Positions 1 to 9,718 of a stretch of DNA of 9,718 nucleotides are shown here, in pieces (the stretch's first letter is position 1; each line of letters starts with the position of its first letter). A program made the position numbers and the translations under genes. The DNA lies in the IMG/VR virus record IMGVR_UViG_2609459856_000010, one strand, 5' to 3'. The notes under the pieces are model-generated. The model ran no database searches and was not told the origin of the DNA. It saw only the letters and a list, made by a program, of their open reading frames with translations. The stretch comes from a virus. Its lineage: Duplodnaviria > Heunggongvirae > Uroviricota > Caudoviricetes.

Positions 1-240
1 CCATTAAAAAATCTTCCAAGTTCAGACGAGATGCTGACTTTAAGTTCCACAACTAATGCCTTGTCCCCGGACAGTATTGATGCCACTAATTCGTTAATTG
101 GTAATGATGATTACAACTGTCTGATTGAAGGAAATAAAAATAACAAACGAACGGCGACGGGGTTGAGTACCAGTATTGTCGGTGCAGCAGAGACACGCCC
201 ACGTAATATTTCATTTAATTACATTGTGAGGGCTGCATGA
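1..240 (+). CDS. Tail fiber protein, C-terminal variable (receptor-binding) part; gene starts upstream of the window
   Basis: Frame 1 is open from base 1 to the TGA at 238-240, so the listed ORF 31..240 is the tail of a longer gene. It sits directly upstream of, and overlaps (ATGA), a tail fiber assembly gene, the usual fiber/chaperone arrangement. AT-rich, as is typical of variable fiber tips. Confidence 0.6.
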   Translation, partial: PLKNLPSSDEMLTLSSTTNALSPDSIDATNSLIGNDDYNCLIEGNKNNKRTATGLSTSIVGAAETRPRNISFNYIVRAA

Positions 241-842
241 TGTATAACGCCATCTTAAATAGTAAATTTATTGCCACAAAGGCAGGAGAGATTACCGTTT
301 ATAACTATGACAGTGAGACACGGGAGTATATTTCTGCATCAACTGAATATCTTGCTGTGGGTGTCGGTATCCCTGCATATTCCTGTTTAGATGCTCCTGG
401 CACACATAAGGCTGGTTATGCAATCTGCCGTTCGGCAGATTTAAACTCATGGGAATATGTGCCAGACCATCGCGGTGAAGTTGTCTATAACACCGAAACG
501 GGAGAATCAAAAGAAATCACAGCTCCGGGTGATTACCCTGAAAATACAACCACTATCGTCCCGTTAACGCCATACGATAAATGGGATGGTGAGAAATGGG
601 TGACGGATACCGAGGCACAGCATAGCACCGCAGTAGAAGCGGCAGAAGCACAGCGCCAGTCGCTGATTGATGCTGCAATGGCTTCCATCAGTCTGATTCA
701 ACTGAAATTACAGGCCGGGCGGAAACTGACTCAGGCAGAAACAACCCGACTTAACGCCGTGCTGGATTACATTGACGCGGTGACGGCAACAGATACCAGC
801 ACCGCGCCGGATGTCATCTGGCCTGAACTGCCGGAGGCGTAG
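237..842 (+). CDS. Tail fiber assembly protein (Tfa / P2 gpG-like chaperone)
   Basis: 201-aa ORF coupled to the fiber gene by an ATGA overlap. The C-terminus carries the motif DTSTAPDVIWPELPE, which recurs in the convergent paralog at 814..1242. Family assignment is from recalled Tfa/gpG similarity. Confidence 0.85.
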   Translation: MMYNAILNSKFIATKAGEITVYNYDSETREYISASTEYLAVGVGIPAYSCLDAPGTHKAGYAICRSADLNSWEYVPDHRGEVVYNTETGESKEITAPGDYPENTTTIVPLTPYDKWDGEKWVTDTEAQHSTAVEAAEAQRQSLIDAAMASISLIQLKLQAGRKLTQAETTRLNAVLDYIDAVTATDTSTAPDVIWPELPEA

Positions 843-1242
843 GCCATTCAATATCGGGTGCTGTTGACGTATCAACACGCATCAGCAGCACACGGTATTT
901 CTTCCATTGGGTGAGAGTTGTAGCTTCTTCATCAGTTGCGATATCAGCATCAACAGCATCCTGACGCCAGGATATTTCACTGTCAGCTTTTTCCCGTAAT
1001 TGGGATTTTTTAACTTCAGCAATAGCTATTAATTCCTTTTTGGTCGGCTGAGGAATATCTATCAGTGCTGGTTTTCCATTCAGTGTTCCAATCTGTTTTC
1101 CTGGTGGAATATCCATAAATAACTTTTTATGTTCTTCCTCACTGACTATTACACCATCATCAGGCCACAGACCTGATGCCTCAAATTTTTCTTTCTCCGA
1201 TATGGGGAAAAAGCCATTTGCTTTAGCGCTCCATACGTACAT
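814..1242 (-). CDS. Tail fiber assembly protein, alternative cassette (Tfa')
   Basis: 142-aa ORF ending VDTSTAPDIEWPTPP, the same C-terminal motif as the + strand Tfa. It is convergent with that gene and immediately downstream of the minus-strand fiber cassette (4-nt spacing). Confidence 0.8.
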   Translation of the reverse strand: MYVWSAKANGFFPISEKEKFEASGLWPDDGVIVSEEEHKKLFMDIPPGKQIGTLNGKPALIDIPQPTKKELIAIAEVKKSQLREKADSEISWRQDAVDADIATDEEATTLTQWKKYRVLLMRVDTSTAPDIEWPTPPAVQAR

Positions 1243-1243
1243 A

Positions 1244-1579
1244 TCAATACCCCACCGCTATAATGTCCACATTAAATCCCCCGGGACCTGCCTGCCAGAT
1301 GCTGGCCCCTGTTAATGATTTTGTTTGATGAACAACCGCCACATTTGCTGGCGATTGTGTTTCAGTTGTTGCAGTACCGATATCATTCCAGTTAATTGAG
1401 ATTGAATAGTTCGTTGTTGTAAACGACCGGGGGAAAGTTATGTGTCTTACATTGGTGCCGACAGGAAATCCAAGATAAACACGCTGAATTATCATTCCTC
1501 CAGGTAACATAACCCAGTTAGCACCTTCTCCAAAACCAACGTTTATGAAAATGCAGAGATAACGGGTAACTGGCATCAT
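1244..1579 (-). CDS. Alternative tail fiber C-terminal cassette (Sv'-like), silent in this orientation; only the part below the crossover site (about 1244..1525) is likely real fiber coding
   Basis: Minus-strand ORF followed directly by Tfa'. The hix-like site at 1526-1551 lies inside the ORF and encodes IFINVGFGE. The ATG at 1579 is probably fortuitous; after inversion this cassette would be fused to the constant part of the fiber gene upstream of the window. Confidence 0.6.
   Translation of the reverse strand: MMPVTRYLCIFINVGFGEGANWVMLPGGMIIQRVYLGFPVGTNVRHITFPRSFTTTNYSISINWNDIGTATTETQSPANVAVVHQTKSLTGASIWQAGPGGFNVDIIAVGY
1526..1551. other. 26-bp hix/gix-like crossover site for the DNA invertase (right boundary of the invertible fiber segment)
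   Basis: TTCTCCAAAACCAACGTTTATGAAAA at 1526-1551. It has the AAAACC-NN-GGTTT-like dyad architecture of hix/gix sites and matches Salmonella hixL, as I recall it (TTCTTGAAAACCAAGGTTTTTGATAA), at about 22 of 26 positions. It lies 55 bp upstream of the invertase start, as gixR does relative to gin in Mu. Confidence 0.65.
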
Positions 1580-1606
1580 CTCCGGTTTTTATTCAGGGGG
1601 ATGCTC

Positions 1607-2206
1607 ATGCTTATTGGCTATGTACGCGTGTCAACAAATGACCAGAACACGGAATTGCAGCGTAACGCGCTGGAGTGCGCAGGATGTGAGCTGATTTTTG
1701 AGGACAAAATCAGCGGCACGAAGTCCGACCGACCGGGACTGAAAAAACTGCTCAGAACATTATCAGCAGGTGACACTCTGGTAGTCTGGAAGCTGGACAG
1801 GCTGGGGCGTAGTATGCGGCATCTGGTCATTCTGGTTGAGGAACTGCGCGAACGCGGCGTTAATTTTCGCAGCCTGACAGATGCTATTGATACCAGCACG
1901 CCGATGGGGCGTTTCTTTTTTCACGTCATGGGGGCTTTAGCAGAAATGGAACGTGAATTAATTGTTGAGAGAACACTGGCCGGACTGGCAGCTGCACGCG
2001 AACAGGGACGCATTGGCGGACGTCGCCCGAAGTTGACAAAAGAACAACACGAGCAAATAGCGAGGCTGATTAAAAACGGTCATGACAGGAAACAACTGGC
2101 GATCATTTACGACATCGGCATATCGACGATTTATCGTTATCACCCTGTAGGCGATATACAGGCTGAAGAAACAACCAGGCAGACTCAGGAAAATGAAAAC
2201 CGCTAA
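1607..2206 (+). CDS. Serine recombinase DNA invertase (Hin/Gin/Cin/Pin family)
   Basis: The N-terminus MLIGYVRVSTNDQNTELQRNAL contains the catalytic-serine motif, followed by VVWKLDRLGRSM, GRFFFHVMGALAEMERELI and a C-terminal HTH (GRRPKLT...ISTIYRY), all typical of this family. Start is placed at the ATG at 1607 because the GGGGG Shine-Dalgarno at 1596-1600 is too close to the ATG at 1601. Confidence 0.9.
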   Translation: MLIGYVRVSTNDQNTELQRNALECAGCELIFEDKISGTKSDRPGLKKLLRTLSAGDTLVVWKLDRLGRSMRHLVILVEELRERGVNFRSLTDAIDTSTPMGRFFFHVMGALAEMERELIVERTLAGLAAAREQGRIGGRRPKLTKEQHEQIARLIKNGHDRKQLAIIYDIGISTIYRYHPVGDIQAEETTRQTQENENR

Positions 2207-2232: not shown

Positions 2233-2721
2233 TCAAAACAGCCCTTTAACGGAGCTGGCCGCGCTGTTAAGGGATGATGTGACCTTATCTTTGAAGCCGG
2301 ACAGCATATCACTGAACGATGAGGATTGCAGGCGCTCCCGCAAATCCTCATCACAGCGTTCAAGAGTCAGTGAAAACTCTATCTTTTTCGCCTTGCCGTA
2401 GCGATCAAACTCGGAGCGGGTCGTACTTGTGTCAGTCAGAACATACATGCCGTAAATCTGCCCGACGCCATCAATCAGAGGCCAGGGGCGTCCTGTATAC
2501 GCCTGCGTGGTCAGCAGCGAAAGCGACACTTCGCCACCTGTAATTTCAGGATAAAGCACGCCAGAAAGCACGATGCGATCATCACCTGCACCGATATACT
2601 GCCAGCTTGCTGAGCGGTTAACGCGTTCATTTTTCACATGCCGCCAGCTTTTGTTTTGCTGTAACTGCTGATGCGGCAATGTGCGCAGCTCAAAAACAAA
2701 CATGCCGTAGATCATCATCAT
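2233..2721 (-). CDS. U: Phage tail protein U (P2 gpU-like)
   Basis: The ORF starts MMMIYGMFVFEL and contains GGEVSLSLL, a P2 gpU-like pattern from memory. It lies directly downstream of the tape measure gene. Start is chosen at the ATG at 2721 (GAGGAG at 2730-2735, about 8 nt spacing); the ORF is open to 2727. Confidence 0.8.
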   Translation of the reverse strand: MMMIYGMFVFELRTLPHQQLQQNKSWRHVKNERVNRSASWQYIGAGDDRIVLSGVLYPEITGGEVSLSLLTTQAYTGRPWPLIDGVGQIYGMYVLTDTSTTRSEFDRYGKAKKIEFSLTLERCDEDLRERLQSSSFSDMLSGFKDKVTSSLNSAASSVKGLF

Positions 2722-2733
2722 GGCCATGACTCC

Positions 2734-5541
2734 TCAATCTTTATCGTAAAAACTGCCACGTCCGGCACGAGCACGCCGTTCCACCTCTGCCCTGACCATT
2801 TCACCGACCAGTTTCGCCAGTTCGCGGGGATTCTGCGTAACAACGTTATGCAGATGAACATGAATTTCACCACCAAATCCGGAGGCAACAGGCTCCCGGT
2901 TACGGGAAGTTACAGGAACTGATGCCACAGGAGATCGTATGGCCTCCGCCACCGGGCGGGAGCTGGCCGCAACAACAGGGACCAGCGCCGGAGGCAGCGG
3001 AGCCGGGACCACGGGGGTGATATTAATTGCGGGGGCAGGCTTACTGACCTGCGCAATCTTCCGCTCCTGCCACTCCCCACGAACAGCAAGTGCGCGGGGC
3101 AGGTTTTTAAAGACAATATCGCCGGGGCCAATGCGTTTTTTCGTCTCCTCAACCAGCTTACCTGTGTTATCAGCAATTTTGCTGAGTCTGCGCAGCGTAC
3201 CGGTATTGCTGTCTGTGAGCGGTTTGTTGTCTTTGGGGTTATCACCTCCGGTGCCATTGCCATTTTCTACAGGCTTCGGCGGATTGATTTTCGCCAGGTC
3301 CCCCTGAAGAAAGGCAACCTTGTCCTGAAGAATGGCCGCACGCTGTGCGTCTTCGATTTTCTTTCTCGCCCTTTCCGCTTCATCCGGAAGAACACCTAGT
3401 TTTTCAAGTATCCACGCCAGCGTATCCAGCAACATTTTTGCAGGTGTCAGAACAAGCTGTAACGCGCCACCAAGAACGTTACCGAATATCTCGCCAGCAC
3501 TGGTACATTTATCCAGCGTTTCCTTGCTGGACTCCATCGGTGACAGCAGCGATTTAAACCAGTTAAACACCTGGCTGATCCCGATTCCGATTGCGTCAAA
3601 AACAGGACCAAACCGTTCAAAGGTTTCGCGCAACGGGGTCAGCATTTCCATAATCCCGCTGAACACCCCGGCAAAAAATGCCCTGATGGGATCCCAGTAT
3701 TTCCAGATGAGAATGGCAGCTCCGGCAAGCGCAGCCACGATAAGACCAACCGGACTGAACAGCGCCCCGATAGCGCCTCCCAGCAAAGAAACAGAACCCG
3801 TCACCATTCCCCACAACGCAGGCAACACCCTGATGACATTCATTGACCGGGTAAGAATGTCAAAACCAAGACGCAGGGTGGCCAGCTTCCCGTAAAGCAC
3901 CCCAATAACCAGCGACAACGAGCCAATCGTTGCAGTCATTGCCAGCAACGCACCGCCTGCTATCAGTAGCTGGCGCGTCAGTACCGGATGGGCCTGCGCC
4001 AGCGAGGTGATTTTTTCAAGCACCCGCGTGAGCCACTGCGTGACAGAACGCAGCGGACCGTCAACCAGATCACTGATGCGAATACGAAGACCTTCCCATG
4101 CGCTGTCGAGATTTTTCAGGTCCCCATCAAGATTATCGGCCATTACTTTTGCAACGCGATCGGCCTCTCCCCTTGCCCCCTGCAATTCTCTGGTCAGTTT
4201 TTGCAGCTCTCCTGAACCAGCCGCCGCAACAAGCGTCTGCAAACCAACGAACGCCTCTTCTCCGGCGATGTCCTTGAAGAAGGAGACCTGGTCCACCTGT
4301 CCGTATTTTTGTGTCGCCTTATAGAGATCAAGCAGCACATCCTCCATCGGGCGCATTTTGCCTCTGGCGTCAGCAACTGACACCCCCAGCTCTTTCAGTG
4401 CATCAGCCGCAGCTTTTGGCGGTGATGCAAGGCGGGACAGACTTGCGCGCATGGCCGTGCCAGCATCGCTTCCGCGAAGACCATTATTGGCAAGCATCCC
4501 GGCCATGGCCGCCGCTTCTTCAAGACTGATACCAAGTTTTGCGGCAACCGGACCGGTATACTTCATGGTTTCGCCCAGCGCGCGTAAATCAGTATTGGTC
4601 CGGGTGAATGCCGCTGTCAGCGTATCGCCAACCCGGTCCATTTGATCGGCTGTCAGGTTGAACTGTGTGAGGATATTGGAGCCTATATCCGCCGTCTCGC
4701 CGAGTTCGACGCCACCTGCCAGCGCCATATTAAGAACACCGGGCAATGCGGCCTGAATGGCCTGCGGAGTAAAACCAGCCATTGCCAGAAAGCTCTGCCC
4801 ACTGGCGGCATCACTCGCAGTAAACTGTGTTTCAGAGCCAAGTTTTAACGCCTGCTCACGCAGCGCCTTAAACTGCGGGCTGTTTTTGTCGATTCGCGTC
4901 AGTGCCTGAACGCGGGACATCTCTTTGCCGAACCCGATCGCAGGCTGCAAAAAACGCCCGGCAGCATAGCCGCCCGCCGCTGCCGCACCAATTGCCAGCG
5001 CACCACCTGTTTTCAGTTTTCCCGCTGTTTCCTGCGCGCGCGAATACCGCTCACGCGCCCGCGTTACACGCGCAAGCGCCTGCCGTTCGCGTTCAAGCTG
5101 GTTGTTGTACTGTTCGGTGCGTCTGATGGCCTGCTGGATGGTGTTATCGCTACCTGTCAGGGAAATGCCGTGGCGTTTCAGCTCTCCGCCAAGTTCCCGC
5201 ATTTTCTGAATTTCCCGTGTGCGCGATTCATTCAGGCGTTCAAGCCGGGTGCTTAACTGCTGCATCAGCTTTTGTTGTTTTTCGCTGAGCACTGTACCCG
5301 TGCGTTGTAACTGATTAAGGGCGTTAAGCTGGCGTCGTGCTTTCACGATGCCCGCATCCGCTTTACTGACAGCGTCACGGGCGCGCTCAAATGAACGCGC
5401 CTGACGCTCGAGATTTTTGATCGCCCCCTGCGTTCGCTGGATGGAGTCACCAAACTGCCCCATCAGGCGGCGGGCGTTTTCGGCAGGCCGGGTCAGCCTG
5501 TCAACGGCGCTGAAAGCGACCCGGATATCAAGAGTCTTCAT
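2734..5541 (-). CDS. T: Tail tape measure protein (P2 gpT-like)
   Basis: About 935 aa. Charged, coiled-coil-like N-terminal region rich in R/Q/E, Gly/Ala-rich hydrophobic central segments, and a Pro/Val-rich C-terminal region. It sits between E/E' and U. Start is uncertain: GTG 5577, ATG 5550 or ATG 5541, the last having a GGGAA motif upstream. Confidence 0.9.
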   Translation of the reverse strand: MKTLDIRVAFSAVDRLTRPAENARRLMGQFGDSIQRTQGAIKNLERQARSFERARDAVSKADAGIVKARRQLNALNQLQRTGTVLSEKQQKLMQQLSTRLERLNESRTREIQKMRELGGELKRHGISLTGSDNTIQQAIRRTEQYNNQLERERQALARVTRARERYSRAQETAGKLKTGGALAIGAAAAGGYAAGRFLQPAIGFGKEMSRVQALTRIDKNSPQFKALREQALKLGSETQFTASDAASGQSFLAMAGFTPQAIQAALPGVLNMALAGGVELGETADIGSNILTQFNLTADQMDRVGDTLTAAFTRTNTDLRALGETMKYTGPVAAKLGISLEEAAAMAGMLANNGLRGSDAGTAMRASLSRLASPPKAAADALKELGVSVADARGKMRPMEDVLLDLYKATQKYGQVDQVSFFKDIAGEEAFVGLQTLVAAAGSGELQKLTRELQGARGEADRVAKVMADNLDGDLKNLDSAWEGLRIRISDLVDGPLRSVTQWLTRVLEKITSLAQAHPVLTRQLLIAGGALLAMTATIGSLSLVIGVLYGKLATLRLGFDILTRSMNVIRVLPALWGMVTGSVSLLGGAIGALFSPVGLIVAALAGAAILIWKYWDPIRAFFAGVFSGIMEMLTPLRETFERFGPVFDAIGIGISQVFNWFKSLLSPMESSKETLDKCTSAGEIFGNVLGGALQLVLTPAKMLLDTLAWILEKLGVLPDEAERARKKIEDAQRAAILQDKVAFLQGDLAKINPPKPVENGNGTGGDNPKDNKPLTDSNTGTLRRLSKIADNTGKLVEETKKRIGPGDIVFKNLPRALAVRGEWQERKIAQVSKPAPAINITPVVPAPLPPALVPVVAASSRPVAEAIRSPVASVPVTSRNREPVASGFGGEIHVHLHNVVTQNPRELAKLVGEMVRAEVERRARAGRGSFYDKD

Positions 5542-5794
5542 TGTCTGCATTCCCGCTGCGAAGTGCCGCCCGCTCACGCCAACTAACCACTTCGCCGGGC
5601 GTCATCATGAAGATTTCGGCGGGCGACCAGTTAAAAATGGCGGCGATATCTGCCACCAGATCTTCGATGTGCTCAAAGCACACCAAGGTGATTACGCTGC
5701 CGTCTCCTGCACGCTCTTCGCGCCAGAGTCTGGCTCGCTCATAAAATTTACAGCCACAGCGCACAACTGAATAAAATCGCGTGACGACATTTTT
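5528..5794 (-). CDS. E' extension: -1 frame segment producing the gpE+E' tail assembly chaperone fusion by programmed frameshift
   Basis: The -1 frame relative to E opens exactly inside the A7 run (the -1 frame TAA is at 5797-5795) and stays open to 5528, overlapping the start of T. This matches the E/E'/T arrangement of P2 as I recall it. Confidence 0.6.
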   Translation of the reverse strand, partial: KNVVTRFYSVVRCGCKFYERARLWREERAGDGSVITLVCFEHIEDLVADIAAIFNWSPAEIFMMTPGEVVSWRERAALRSGNADNEDS

Positions 5795-6066
5795 TTAATC
5801 ATCACTTCATCCAGTCGTGGCGAGGTCACGCGAGGCAACAGCGTGAACATGGTATCCGCTTTCAGATTCAGCACATCAGACAGCGACAGACCACGCAGGG
5901 ATCCAGCCTGTTCAATAGCCCCGGTGATCTCCACATACGTGATTTTTTCGCCACCACGCTCAATTGGTCGAGTCAGTTTTACGCCACGTTCGACAGCCAT
6001 ATCCTCACCTGCCGTCACATCATCCGCCACGGTGTTATTCCGGGTTTCAGTATCGATGTCTTTCAT
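5692..6066 (-). CDS. E: Tail assembly chaperone gpE (P2 E-like)
   Basis: 124-aa ORF between the tube and tape measure genes, with Shine-Dalgarno AAAGGAG upstream of the ATG at 6066. It contains the slippery run at codons 90-92 (I-K-K). Confidence 0.8.
   Translation of the reverse strand: MKDIDTETRNNTVADDVTAGEDMAVERGVKLTRPIERGGEKITYVEITGAIEQAGSLRGLSLSDVLNLKADTMFTLLPRVTSPRLDEVMIKKMSSRDFIQLCAVAVNFMSEPDSGAKSVQETAA
5790..5796 (-). promoter_or_regulatory. Candidate -1 ribosomal frameshift slippery run (A7 in mRNA sense) for E to E'
   Basis: The mRNA reads AUU AAA AAA AUG in the E frame. The overlapping -1 ORF becomes open at this run. Homopolymeric A runs are known slippery sequences. Confidence 0.5.
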
Positions 6067-6121: not shown

Positions 6122-6634
6122 TCAGCCAAGCCCGAGCGCGGAACGGATACGGTCAGGCACAATGTCCTTGCCGTCCTTCCGGTAAATGAAGTTCAGCAGG
6201 TCAATCTCCCACAACGGGCGATCGTTAACACTCAGCTTGTAGTAGGTGTTTTTAATGGCGTAAGTGTGTGATGTGGCTTCGCCCTGTTTGGCTTCCCCCA
6301 TATCAATTTCCGTCACACGTCCGCGCATTTCGACTTCATACAGGTCGCTTTCTGCATCGGTGTAGTATTCACCCGCAAAACGCAGCAGCGTGCCGTCAAT
6401 CGTGCCGCCATACTTAAGGAACAGCTCACGAACTGCGCCCCCCATGACAAAGCTCGCATCAAGCGCGGAGTCGTCCAGACCGAGATCAATACTTACCGCA
6501 CCCATCATGCCACCACCCCGGTAGCTGTCGGTTTTGCGCGTCAGCTTAGGTAGAGTGACGGACGTCACCTTACCCACTTCGTTTTCACCATCCACAAACA
6601 GCGTAAAAAAGCGAAGATGTTTTGGCACAGCCAT
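6122..6634 (-). CDS. FII: Tail tube protein (P2 FII-like)
   Basis: 170-aa ORF immediately downstream of the sheath gene, start overlapping the sheath stop. Size and position fit P2 FII. Confidence 0.9.
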   Translation of the reverse strand: MAVPKHLRFFTLFVDGENEVGKVTSVTLPKLTRKTDSYRGGGMMGAVSIDLGLDDSALDASFVMGGAVRELFLKYGGTIDGTLLRFAGEYYTDAESDLYEVEMRGRVTEIDMGEAKQGEATSHTYAIKNTYYKLSVNDRPLWEIDLLNFIYRKDGKDIVPDRIRSALGLG

Positions 6635-7818
6635 CAGGCACCTCCCAGCACCGCAAATGCGGGTTCAAAGTATTCATCAGTAAACGTCTGGTAAAGCTCC
6701 ATGTCTTCCAGCGGGGGAACAGGCGTATATTTGTAGCGAATACGCACACGCCCCTGACGTAAATCCGTGGTGCTGTTATCCACCACGTCATACCAGCACT
6801 CCGCGCCAATCAGTTTCCCGGCAGTAACCAGTGAATCCAGTTTTGCCCTGATGGCACTGATAACATCCTTCACGTTCGCAGGCGTCAGTGGACTGTCGAT
6901 GGTTTCAAACTGCGCTTCCGCAATTGAATCAGCCAGCACCTGTGCGGTTCGGGTATACACCTCAAAGATGTAGGCGTTCGTTTCCGGGGTGCGGTTGCCC
7001 CAGAAGCGGAACCCGTTGCGACGAATAATGGTCGTGATTTCTTTGTTGTTGAGGCTGTTGGCATCACTGTCTTCGGCCTGCAACGACCAGAACACATGCC
7101 TGGACATCCCCAGCACATTTTTAACCGGAACGTTGGACAGCGATTTGTGCCAGCCCTGCTCATGGTCAATGTACGCACGAAGGCCGCACGCATAGGCAGG
7201 CGCGGGGAACGTTTCGTTTTTGCCACTTTTCGGGTTGTAGGCGATGAAGTCCGGCCATAAGAGCATCACCTCACGTTCGTTGAATTTCTGGCGGTAGGTA
7301 ATCGCCTCAGCCATCGTGTTACAGCCGTGACATGAGGCATACACAAACGCGCGCAGTTTACCCGCAATCACGCACAGGGATTTTGTTACCGCCTCCGTGT
7401 CCAGCTCCGGCGCGGCCAGAATACGCGGACGGTATCCGATGCTTTCATCCTGCTCTGCAACAAGCAGCGCATACATCCCCGTATAGCTGCCGTCAGATTC
7501 AGAACCACCGATAACCAGTTGATCCTGCGTTTTTCCGTCTTCTTCTTTGTGTTCAGCCACGCGAACGACGATCACCTTTGTGCTCACCTGGTCTGCGATG
7601 GCCTTAAGCGCACGATAAAGCGTCCCCGTTGTTCCGCATTTTCCCAGCACGTCATTGACGCGGGTCAGCAGTGTGGGCTTGTTCAGCGGGAACAGCTCCG
7701 CATCCGCATCATCCGCCGTTGCCACGATACCGATAACACTGGAATCAACATCATTAATCGCTGTTACCAGGTCGGTACTTTCCGTAACACGGGCACCATG
7801 AAAACGAGTTTCACTCAT
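6634..7818 (-). CDS. FI: Contractile tail sheath protein (P2 FI-like)
   Basis: 394-aa ORF starting MSETRFHGARVTE, first gene of the minus-strand block, with Shine-Dalgarno AAGGGG about 8 nt upstream of the ATG at 7818-7816. Size and sequence are sheath-like. Confidence 0.9.
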   Translation of the reverse strand: MSETRFHGARVTESTDLVTAINDVDSSVIGIVATADDADAELFPLNKPTLLTRVNDVLGKCGTTGTLYRALKAIADQVSTKVIVVRVAEHKEEDGKTQDQLVIGGSESDGSYTGMYALLVAEQDESIGYRPRILAAPELDTEAVTKSLCVIAGKLRAFVYASCHGCNTMAEAITYRQKFNEREVMLLWPDFIAYNPKSGKNETFPAPAYACGLRAYIDHEQGWHKSLSNVPVKNVLGMSRHVFWSLQAEDSDANSLNNKEITTIIRRNGFRFWGNRTPETNAYIFEVYTRTAQVLADSIAEAQFETIDSPLTPANVKDVISAIRAKLDSLVTAGKLIGAECWYDVVDNSTTDLRQGRVRIRYKYTPVPPLEDMELYQTFTDEYFEPAFAVLGGA

Positions 7819-7974
7819 AGCTTCAGCCCCTTGTATCCGTTAAATGATTCGGCAACAATCATCACCCACCACGCGCGTAATCTCCCCCCTGCGCCGTTCT
7901 CCCGCCACGGCGACAACAAAAAGCAGTAACCCCCTCCGCACGCACATGCGACCATGCTGCACAGGGAGGGAAAG

Positions 7975-9084
7975 ATGACCGACACCACCATGCAATTGCT
8001 CAGTCAGGGCACAGACCCCGTGAAAATGCCGGATTTTGATATTCTCGTGGAGGGGGAAACGCTGTCCGGCGTGGCAGAGCGCCTGATGAGCCTGTCACTG
8101 ACCGACAACCGGGGATTTGAAGCGGACCAGCTCACCATCACGCTGGATGATGCGGATGGTCAGTTGCAGCTACCGCCACGGGGCGCGCGCCTGACGGTTC
8201 TCATTGGCTGGAAAGGAGAACCGCTGACAGAAAAAGGCACTTACATTGTTGATGAAATTGCTCATGAAGGACCGCCCGACAGACTGACCATTTCAGCCAG
8301 AAGCGCAGATTTTCGGGATGAATTTAACGTCAAGCGCGAAGTATCCTGGCATGATGTGACCGTTGAACGCGTGGTGTCTGCAATTGCTCACCGATACGGC
8401 CTGAAACCGCAAATCAGCGAAATGCTGATGGATATTGAAATCGACCACGCCGACCAGACCGAAGAAAGCGACATGTCCTTCCTTACGCGCATGGCGGAAA
8501 TGCTGGGCGCAATCACCACGGTAAAAAGCGGCAATCTGTTATTCATCATGCCAGGTGGTGGCGTGAACGCACAGGGCCAGCCGTTGCCCTCGTTCGCCAT
8601 TACACGCAGCAGCGGCGATCGCCATCAGTTCCGTATTGCTGACCGCGAGGCGTATACGGGGGTACGCGCCTACTGGCTTGATCTTAATTACGGGAAAAAG
8701 AAAAAAGTCAGCGTAAAACGCCGTAAACCGCCAAAACCCAAAAAGGAGAAAAGCAGCAGCCGTGAAGGTGATTATATGGAAGGCGCGGAAGGCAATGTGT
8801 TTGTGTTACGCAAGACTTATCAGAACGAGCAGGCAGCAAGACGCGCAGCGGCGGCAAAGTGGCAGCAGCTACAACGCGGAGCCGCAGCGTTCTCCATCAC
8901 ACTGGCACGTGGACGCGCAGAACTCTACCCCGAAATGCATGGCACGGTAACAGGATTTAAAAGCGAGATTGATAATCAGGACTGGATTATTGCAAAAGCC
9001 GAGCACACCATTGATAACAGCGGCTTTACCACGCAGCTTGAGCTTGAGGCAAAAATCCCGGAATGGATAGCAGAAACAGACTGA
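7975..9084 (+). CDS. D: Phage late control / tail protein D (P2 gpD-like)
   Basis: 369 aa from the ATG at 7975, preceded by GGGAGGG; the ORF is open from 7954. Central lysine-rich stretch (KKKKVSVKRRKPPKPKKEK) and overall gpD-like sequence. Followed by ogr, as in P2. Confidence 0.85.
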   Translation: MTDTTMQLLSQGTDPVKMPDFDILVEGETLSGVAERLMSLSLTDNRGFEADQLTITLDDADGQLQLPPRGARLTVLIGWKGEPLTEKGTYIVDEIAHEGPPDRLTISARSADFRDEFNVKREVSWHDVTVERVVSAIAHRYGLKPQISEMLMDIEIDHADQTEESDMSFLTRMAEMLGAITTVKSGNLLFIMPGGGVNAQGQPLPSFAITRSSGDRHQFRIADREAYTGVRAYWLDLNYGKKKKVSVKRRKPPKPKKEKSSSREGDYMEGAEGNVFVLRKTYQNEQAARRAAAAKWQQLQRGAAAFSITLARGRAELYPEMHGTVTGFKSEIDNQDWIIAKAEHTIDNSGFTTQLELEAKIPEWIAETD

Positions 9085-9126: not shown

Positions 9127-9387
9127 ATGTTCCGTTGTCCGCTTTGTGGCGCATCTGCCCGTATCCGCACCAGTCGTCCGGAAAATGATTCAAACACCGT
9201 GCGGCAAAAGTATTACCAGTGTAACAACCTGGAATGCGGCGTATGCTTCTCAACACTGGAAGCTTTCCATAAATTCACATCGAAACACGCCTCCGGCGTT
9301 CACTCATCAGAAGGTATCCCGTGGCATGAGCTGCCAGCTTCACACAGGGGAAACAATCAGATGAGTTTGCCTTTATCTCAGAATTAA
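9127..9387 (+). CDS. ogr: Ogr/Delta-family zinc-finger late transcription activator
   Basis: 86 aa starting MFRCPLCGASARIRTSR, with Cys-X2-Cys ... Cys-X4-Cys (CPLC ... CNNLEC), characteristic of P2 Ogr. Shine-Dalgarno GGGAGG is 5 nt upstream. Confidence 0.85.
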   Translation: MFRCPLCGASARIRTSRPENDSNTVRQKYYQCNNLECGVCFSTLEAFHKFTSKHASGVHSSEGIPWHELPASHRGNNQMSLPLSQN

Positions 9388-9547
9388 CAGGCAGAATTGC
9401 CGGAGTAACAAAAAAGCGATAGATTACGCGCGGGTGCCTTTCGGCTGATGGTCGGAGGGAATACCCGAAGGCCAGATGTGGAAAGGCCCCGGAAAACATC
9501 TCTGTTTAACCGAGGCCCTAACCGCATTACCTTAGCAAGTGATAGGT

Positions 9548-9577
9548 TAGCGCCTCCCTGAAAAAGGAGCAAGCGCT
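9548..9577 (+). promoter_or_regulatory. Possible Shine-Dalgarno-sequestering hairpin in the hok-like leader
   Basis: AGCGC (9548-9552) can pair with GCGCT (9573-9577), and CTCC (9554-9557) with the GGAG of the Shine-Dalgarno (9566-9569), enclosing the ribosome binding site up to the ATG. By-eye prediction only. Confidence 0.25.
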
Positions 9578-9718
9578 ATGTCGCAAAAATCGCTTACGGC
9601 CATCACGTTCTGCGTGACGGCAATCCTCATCATCTGGATGCTGCACGGTTCGCTGTGCGAAATACGGATGAGCTTCTGGGGAGCGGAGTTTGCGGCGTTC
9701 TTACAGTGTAAGCAGTAA
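9578..9718 (+). CDS. Hok/Gef-family type I toxin (small membrane peptide), 46 aa
   Basis: ATG at 9578 with AAGGAG 8 nt upstream; the stop is at 9716-9718. Not in the supplied ORF track because it is short. Translation: MSQKSLTAITFCVTAILIIWMLHGSLCEIRMSFWGAEFAAFLQCKQ. It has an N-terminal transmembrane helix followed by SLCEIR-x6-E-x-AAF, which aligns with the conserved SLCEIRYRDGHREVAAF core of Hok as I recall it. Confidence 0.6.
   Translation: MSQKSLTAITFCVTAILIIWMLHGSLCEIRMSFWGAEFAAFLQCKQ

Follow-up and report, generated by a model that had tools for sequence, protein, structure and literature searches.

A complete hok/sok type I toxin-antitoxin moron very probably occupies positions 9397–9718 of the window (the whole stretch of 9,718 nucleotides of viral DNA that was analyzed) and extends a further ~110 nt outside it; it is carried in the variable stretch that separates ogr from the attachment site in a P88-like prophage. 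The coordinates of its parts and of the neighboring phage genes are given in Table 1.

Analyses of the ORF directly downstream of ogr indicated that it encodes a Hok/Gef family protein. The ORF begins with ATG, specifies a product of 46 aa (MSQKSLTAITFCVTAILIIWMLHGSLCEIRMSFWGAEFAAFLQCKQ) and has its TAA stop codon as the last three bases of the window; its Shine-Dalgarno sequence lies 8 nt 5' of the ATG. The protein has a single N-terminal hydrophobic stretch (residues ~4–27; Kyte-Doolittle 19-residue mean 1.9–2.0) and contains SLCEIR (residues 25–30), MSFWGAEF (31–38), E.AAF (37–41) and Cys44. Its size of ~50 aa, one transmembrane helix and the SLCE Cys in a polar C-terminal part are all features of the Hok/Gef family. 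Pfam HOK_GEF (PF01848) matched residues 7–44 at model positions 5–42 of 42 (29.9 bits, E 4.1e-7), thereby passing the curated gathering threshold of 22 bits, and PHROG_251 ('MokW-like host killing') matched end to end (80.6 bits, E 1.3e-22), well beyond what chance would produce. The original prediction, made from the letters and open reading frames, is borne out in these respects: there is a 46-codon ORF with a good ribosome binding site directly 3' of ogr, it is complete and ends exactly at the window edge, the quoted hallmarks (one N-terminal transmembrane helix and an SLCEIR...E.AAF core) are all present, and the Pfam search proposed as a check was positive. It had also described the tail as divergent, with a second Cys. 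Both features are indeed there, but they are not novel, both being common to K-12 HokA (E.AAFL.CK), and they mark a known branch of the Hok family.

Conservation was assessed in 11 related loci of the 46-aa hok subfamily (alignment A1). The ORF had exactly 46 codons and no indels in these diverged loci, whose DNA differs by up to ~25%, and pairwise dN/dS values were 0.3–0.6. Judged from its sequence, the product is a genuine Hok-type membrane toxin. Toxicity has been demonstrated for its relatives R1 Hok and HokW (PMC9841398, PMC8621323). Our literature search found no experiment on the 46-aa HokA-like subfamily, and nothing specific on hok in P2-like phages, in P88 or beside ogr.

Table 1. 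Positions in the window of the predicted hok/sok elements and of the neighboring phage genes.
Feature	Position	Strand	Details and basis
Predicted hok promoter	9397–9425	+	-35 TTGCCG 9397–9402, 17-nt spacer, -10 TAGATT 9420–9425
hok mRNA leader, 146 nt	9432–9577	+	Rfam RF01794 match and RNAalifold
tac	9432–9446	+	GGGUGCCUUUCGGCU; part of leader
ucb-like box	~9475–9491	+	Part of leader
Sok target	~9480–9536	+	Part of leader
Anti-SD CCUCC	9553–9557	+	Part of leader
37-codon leader ORF	9448–9561	+	Ends at a TGA 2 nt 5' of the hok SD; rejected as a gene
Predicted sok promoter	9544–9572	-	-35 TTGCTC 9572–9567, 17-nt spacer, -10 TAACCT 9549–9544
Predicted Sok-like antisense RNA, ~57 nt	~9480–9536	-	Fold and conservation; ends inferred
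hok Shine-Dalgarno AAGGAG	9564–9569	+	Read from the sequence; paired with upstream CCUCC in fold models
hok coding sequence, Hok/Gef family membrane toxin	9578–9718	+	Pfam, PHROG and RefSeq identity
ogr	9127–9387	+	Pfam Ogr_Delta, E 5e-14; directly upstream of hok
gpD gene	7954–9084	+	Phage_GPD; upstream of ogr
Tail sheath	6634–7818	-	
Tail tube	6122–6634	-	
Small tail-protein gene	5692–6066	-	
Tape measure	2734–5577	-	
Further tail protein	2233–2727	-	

The region between ogr and the toxin ORF was found to resemble the leader of a hok mRNA. Rfam RF01794 matched positions 9432–9591 (plus strand) over its full model with 44.8 bits (E 9.7e-9), which is below its gathering score of 59, and the match begins exactly at the predicted hok transcription start (G9432). 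On an R1-type plasmid control (L014, 332–503), the same model scored 87.2 bits in the hok-sense orientation, its match spanning everything between the 5' terminus of the mRNA and the hok AUG, and the match in the window therefore probably represents the homologous hok leader. As a side observation, RF01794 is named 'sok antitoxin' and in effect models the hok leader. Four sister loci of the subfamily scored 35.6–51 bits, so that the whole 46-aa subfamily falls below the Rfam threshold and is missed by default Rfam annotation.

Both the hok and the sok promoters were placed by homology and conservation and not by a scanner. A consensus promoter scan of the locus listed neither of them, both being weak by consensus; the hok promoter has 8/12 matches to the consensus, where the scanner needs 9/12. 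A TTGC-N17-TAnAnT element was nevertheless found at a constant distance from GGGTGCC in 11/11 related loci, and the homology between genomic contexts ends just upstream of the hok -35. RNAalifold on alignment A1 returned an alternative tac/ucb hairpin (columns 8–22 with 55–68) in which all pairs are kept. In the fold models, the hok Shine-Dalgarno sequence forms a local hairpin with the upstream CCUCC, with an unpaired probability of 0.28.

On the opposite strand, the leader appears to encode an antisense Sok RNA with its own promoter and a terminator hairpin. The original prediction had anticipated an antisense RNA within about 9440–9580, and a conserved antisense promoter and hairpin do lie there, at the level of sequence. 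The sok -10 was invariant in 11/11 loci, the -35 was TTGCTC, TTGCCT or TTGACT, and the spacer was 17–18 nt; at the homologous place, the R1-type locus L014 has TTGCGC-N17-TATCCT. The Sok parts comprise a variable single-stranded 5' tail of 18 nt (9536–9519), a conserved hairpin (9518–9484) and a UUUCC end. The hairpin with its U-run folded with -31.5 kcal/mol (z = -3.3). Nine distinct sequence versions all preserved the hairpin, two of its pairs having changed in both partners; where the Sok stem has a U-G pair, the sense strand has a C-A mismatch. The 5' tail was the most variable stretch of the whole leader, as expected if it were the specificity determinant. A promoter-less sokW mutant of prophage Sp5 has been made with primers YO-421/422 (PMC8621323), and by our own reading of the published primer sequences these would abut at the homologous GGTTAGCC site.

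The original prediction had also proposed folding the region in search of a tac/fbi-like long-range pairing, and this pairing appears once the 3' context is taken from L001, a prophage locus with 99.4% identity. The fold of its full-length RNA (z = -7.4) contained 15 bp between tac (GGGUGCCUUUCGGCU) and fbi (GGUCGAAGUGGCACCC). The fbi lies 49–66 nt past the window end and is followed by a GC-rich hairpin and a U-containing tail. A tac/fbi duplex of 15–17 bp was found at stop+47..+52 in 11/11 loci, despite five different fbi versions, with energies of -26 to -31 kcal/mol against a shuffle mean of ~-17 in a per-locus duplex calculation; for the three P88-like loci, the 200 shuffles included at least one with an energy equal to or better than the observed one. 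Covariation in the duplex was mostly one-sided because tac is nearly invariant. RNAalifold did not return tac/fbi from the 11-locus alignment, since MAFFT puts the fbi versions out of register, and the duplex was calculated for each sequence instead. In a model without fbi, tac switched to the ucb box and the accessibility of the Sok target rose from 0.28 to 0.50; such switching of tac on 3' trimming is the behavior described for R1 (PMC9841398). The hok Shine-Dalgarno sequence was largely paired in both the full-length and the truncated models, which therefore leave the activation step unexplained. BLAST similarity between contexts stops at the last fbi base (query position 360, L001 4784) and, with the limit at the -35, this sets the hok -35 and fbi as the ends of the mobile unit.

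Another element of the hok 3' UTR is a hairpin, GACGGGGGAG...CCCCCGUC, between the stop codon and fbi (L001 4728–4751, 9–32 nt past the window end). It is conserved, and four of its pairs are changed on both sides among the 11 loci (A1 columns 310–334). A consensus terminator scan of the locus gave only a minus-strand terminator-like match, which lies on the 3' UTR hairpin.

The canonical place of mok is empty in the window. In R1, Mok translation is required at least up to the hok Shine-Dalgarno sequence, and mok starts 57–58 nt upstream of hok; the R1-type control has a 71-codon ORF from -57 relative to hok, to which the window has no counterpart. The GAGG that serves as the mok Shine-Dalgarno sequence in R1 is retained and conserved, but it is followed in the window leader by no ATG, GTG or TTG start codon, and the hok reading frame is closed by two TAG codons upstream. 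Among the 11 loci, leader ORFs begin at different places, use different frames and end between -58 and +82, and we saw in them no sign of a conserved mok that would be coupled in translation through the hok start. The 37-codon ORF of the leader was rejected as mok, its ATG being ACG in two (ykgM-linked) loci and its frame and end varying, although its translation could in principle open the local CCUCC/GGAG hairpin. Two further candidates for a mok-like start, a 3-codon GUG mini-ORF (9539–9550) and an AUU at 9526, were dropped as they are not conserved. It should be noted that mok is a regulatory accessory of R1-type loci and lies outside the definition of the Hok protein family.

A type I toxin-antitoxin mechanism is well supported by homology with R1 hok/sok, and we consider it highly likely to apply here. 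The protein family, the leader similarity, the conserved promoter positions and, as model folds, the tac/fbi and Sok hairpin pairings are shown by the present analysis, and the transcripts, their processing, the toxicity and the role would follow from R1. By that homology, transcription from the weak promoter would begin at 9432 and yield a stable ~390-nt hok mRNA, and in the full-length RNA the 5' tac would pair with the 3' fbi to give an inert fold. Slow 3' trimming would remove fbi, whereupon tac would pair with the internal ucb and the Sok target would be exposed. The short, unstable Sok (~9536 to 9480) would then bind this target and block Hok synthesis, probably with RNase III cleavage. 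Sok supply could cease because the prophage is lost or induced or because an infecting phage shuts off transcription; the 46-aa Hok would then be made and would insert in the inner membrane, leading to depolarization or lysis.

With no conserved mok, the way in which Sok blocks Hok translation may differ from that in R1. We tentatively speculate, while regarding it as on the whole doubtful, that the 46-aa HokA-like subfamily is a mok-independent form of hok/sok. Sok binding to the 5' arm of the target hairpin (9511–9536) would free the 3' arm, with its CCUCC at 9553–9557, to close the hok Shine-Dalgarno sequence, or RNase III decay alone would exert control; the compact cassette, from -35 to fbi, would have moved in one piece among the moron sites of prophages of the P2 family and of the Stx and lambdoid kinds, acting in lysis timing or phage exclusion. 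Given the apparent lack of mok, these loci would offer a ready natural example in which to ask how translation of Hok is controlled when there is no coupling to a leader ORF.

Comparison with named systems placed the protein closest to K-12 HokA (b4455; NCBIfam NF007290), the best-scoring named Hok, with 43% identity over 47 aa (E 4e-11). The two proteins share MxQK, W-M, SLCE and E.AAFL.CK including the C-terminal Cys, and the K-12 hokA 3' region carries GCACCCAAATTTA, as does the fbi region of the window locus. HokA has 50 aa compared to the 46 aa of the window protein, and the K-12 locus is disrupted by IS150 and carries an annotated mokA, whereas the window locus is without an IS. Against the HokA equivalog model (NF007290), the protein scored 34 bits, far below the cut-off of 89; HokA is the closest named relative, and the assignment of the protein as HokA itself was rejected.

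The likeness to R1 hok/sok (parB), whose mechanism is summarized in PMC9841398, lies in the arrangement of the whole locus: a weak hok promoter, a predicted structured leader, tac/fbi with a tac/ucb alternative, a Sok hairpin, and a one-helix toxin with SLCEIR. In both, the antisense Sok promoter overlaps the hok Shine-Dalgarno region and has a 17-nt spacer. R1 Hok is 39% identical to the window protein over 31 aa. The window leader is ~27 nt shorter than that of R1, with the hok AUG at +147 versus +174, and the R1 copy resides on a plasmid whereas the window copy is on a prophage.

The hokW-sokW locus of the Stx2 prophage Sp5 (933W family) is likewise a prophage-borne type I toxin-antitoxin system of the same phrog_251, and it was shown experimentally that HokW is toxic and is neutralized by sokW (PMC8621323). 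The sequences of the published primers indicate that its -10 lies in an identical TAACC(T) context. By our reading of primers YO-357 and YO-369, HokW is a HokC/D-like protein of 51 aa. The possibility that the window gene is hokW was rejected, as the published hokW primers encode a different protein (MKQQKAM...). Separate from the hokW-sokW locus, the Sp5 and 933W records each contain an unannotated 46-aa hok with 73.9% identity to the window protein (VT2-Sakai (Sp5), AP000422.1 47015–47152; 933W, NC_000924.1 45660–45797).

The toxin gene itself proved to be already known. Its 46-aa product is identical to RefSeq WP_000078916.1 ('Hok/Gef family protein'), which is also the gene product in E. 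coli CFS3292, where a 719-nt segment comprising the end of D, ogr and hok is 99.4% identical to the window. Among 5426 complete E. coli genomes, this segment (>=80% of the 719 nt) was found in 1179 and the hok mRNA module alone in 1701. The survey covered phage and E. coli collections, and one Citrobacter phage was seen. The same D-ogr-hok order was present in phages P88, Chuche, PhiR44_2, Xuanwuvirus P884B11 and Citrobacter phage Shae_phiSM (97–98% identity), and P88-like records label the gene 'MokW-like host killing / hok/gef family protein'; P88 gp52 (YP_009113095.1, 'MokW-like host killing, hok/gef family protein') is the same gene as the window hok. Copies in P88-like phages and prophages encode proteins 97.8–100% identical, with DNA 96.8–99.4% identical over D-ogr-hok, and show no substantive difference from the window; only the cargo 3' of hok varies.

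The sharing of the D-ogr-hok arrangement among P88-like phages and prophages identifies the element as a P88-like prophage (Peduoviridae, Xuanwuvirus; P2-family) and not as P2. In the P88-like lineage, hok after ogr is the rule and no unusual insertion. The original prediction had described a Hok-like type I toxin carried as a moron beside ogr, which is supported, but its frame of reference was P2. It was right that canonical P2 has no such gene there, ogr in P2 being directly followed by a terminator, attP and int. With the identical gene annotated in over a thousand E. coli prophages, and the sequence already named in RefSeq and in phage records, the feature is to be seen as an ordinary one. 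Standard pipelines (PGAP, PHROGs) name the gene correctly, and it is carried by ~1/5 to 1/3 of complete E. coli genomes. The value of the present description is accordingly modest: the sok of this subfamily escapes annotation, and the Sp5 and 933W reference records leave their hok copy unannotated.

The 46-aa module (75–83% DNA identity) was also found at other kinds of site: downstream of a lom-like gene in Stx and O157 prophages, in a lambdoid prophage between J and a tail fiber gene, between tail fiber genes in phage 1720a-02, and beside ykgM in an island with traT remnants. In some P88-like prophages, hok is directly followed by the host gene serS at the right end, and in others by variable cargo (a TM2-domain gene, com and a DNA methyltransferase) and then raiA or a phage integrase. 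In L001 (4855–6289), the cargo consists of a TM2-domain protein and a Com-family regulator whose gene overlaps that of a DNA methyltransferase, much as in Mu com/mom, followed by host raiA.

Taking the cassette to be real, its main role may be addiction (post-segregational killing) or defense (abortive infection against transcription-blocking phages), a reading that we find plausible while holding it to be somewhat less than probable. R1 hok/sok has such roles, namely plasmid maintenance and partial T4 exclusion (summarized in PMC8621323), and the module is very widespread among prophages and shares the variable cargo region of the prophage end with other accessory genes (TM2-domain protein, Com and DNA methyltransferase). 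However, integrated prophages are rarely lost, so that killing after loss would be of little benefit, and T4 exclusion by R1 hok/sok needed a high-copy plasmid (PMC8621323). For the 46-aa subfamily, a role in addiction or defense would be carried over from R1 by analogy.

The main role of a real cassette could instead be in helping the phage, with Sok lost on induction and membrane damage by Hok advancing or augmenting lysis and release, which we view as possible but rather unlikely. The hokW-sokW locus of Sp5, the only experimentally studied prophage hok/sok locus, points this way, since without it ~two-fold fewer phages were released, and HokW production was RecA-dependent (PMC8621323). In addition, hok lies directly 3' of the late regulator ogr and our scan detected no intrinsic terminator between the two, unlike in P2, which makes late read-through conceivable. 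HokW is, however, a different, 51-aa Hok. Since the cassette carries a promoter of its own and the module also functions from unrelated positions, coupling to ogr is not required, and a 5'-extended read-through RNA would not begin with tac. In P88-like phages, a role in release would be an analogy to Sp5. These loci form a very common prophage-borne subfamily of putative toxins, and the only prophage hok/sok that has been studied, hokW-sokW, had an unexpected pro-phage role.

That the locus is instead a decayed, silent hok relic with no active toxin, like several K-12 chromosomal hok loci, is suggested by the inactivation of its closest named relative (K-12 hokA, which has IS150 in its leader and mokA and sokA annotated as pseudogenes), by the lack of a conserved mok and by the Rfam leader score below gathering, but is highly improbable given that the ORF, Shine-Dalgarno sequence, both promoters, tac, fbi and Sok hairpin are intact and conserved in position in 11 loci (<=25% divergence), that dN/dS is below 1 with no IS or frameshift, and that the module has reached genomic sites of at least four kinds.

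Outside the cassette, D and ogr, the window is taken up by a P2-family tail module and a DNA invertase with tail-fiber assembly genes. In P2, U, D and ogr all run in one direction, whereas in the window the tail genes are on the minus strand and D and ogr on the plus strand; this divergent layout is common to the window and phage P88. The invertase is of the Hin/Gin type (1601–2206, plus strand; PHROG_125, E 1e-99). Beside it are tail-fiber assembly genes at 237–842 (plus strand) and 814–1242 (minus strand) and a tail-fiber C-terminal fragment at 1244–1579 (minus strand), and the region 237–2206 looks like an invertible tail-fiber segment. A search of 1–2400 for inverted repeats of 18 nt or more gave none, so that one crossover site is probably outside the window. 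Finally, in L001 (3232–4085), the PGAP call for gpD is 801 nt long ('contractile injection system protein, VgrG/Pvc8 family') and is accompanied by an overlapping pseudogene fragment. The window D is an uninterrupted ORF of 376 codons, and the difference probably reflects a choice of start site or annotation.
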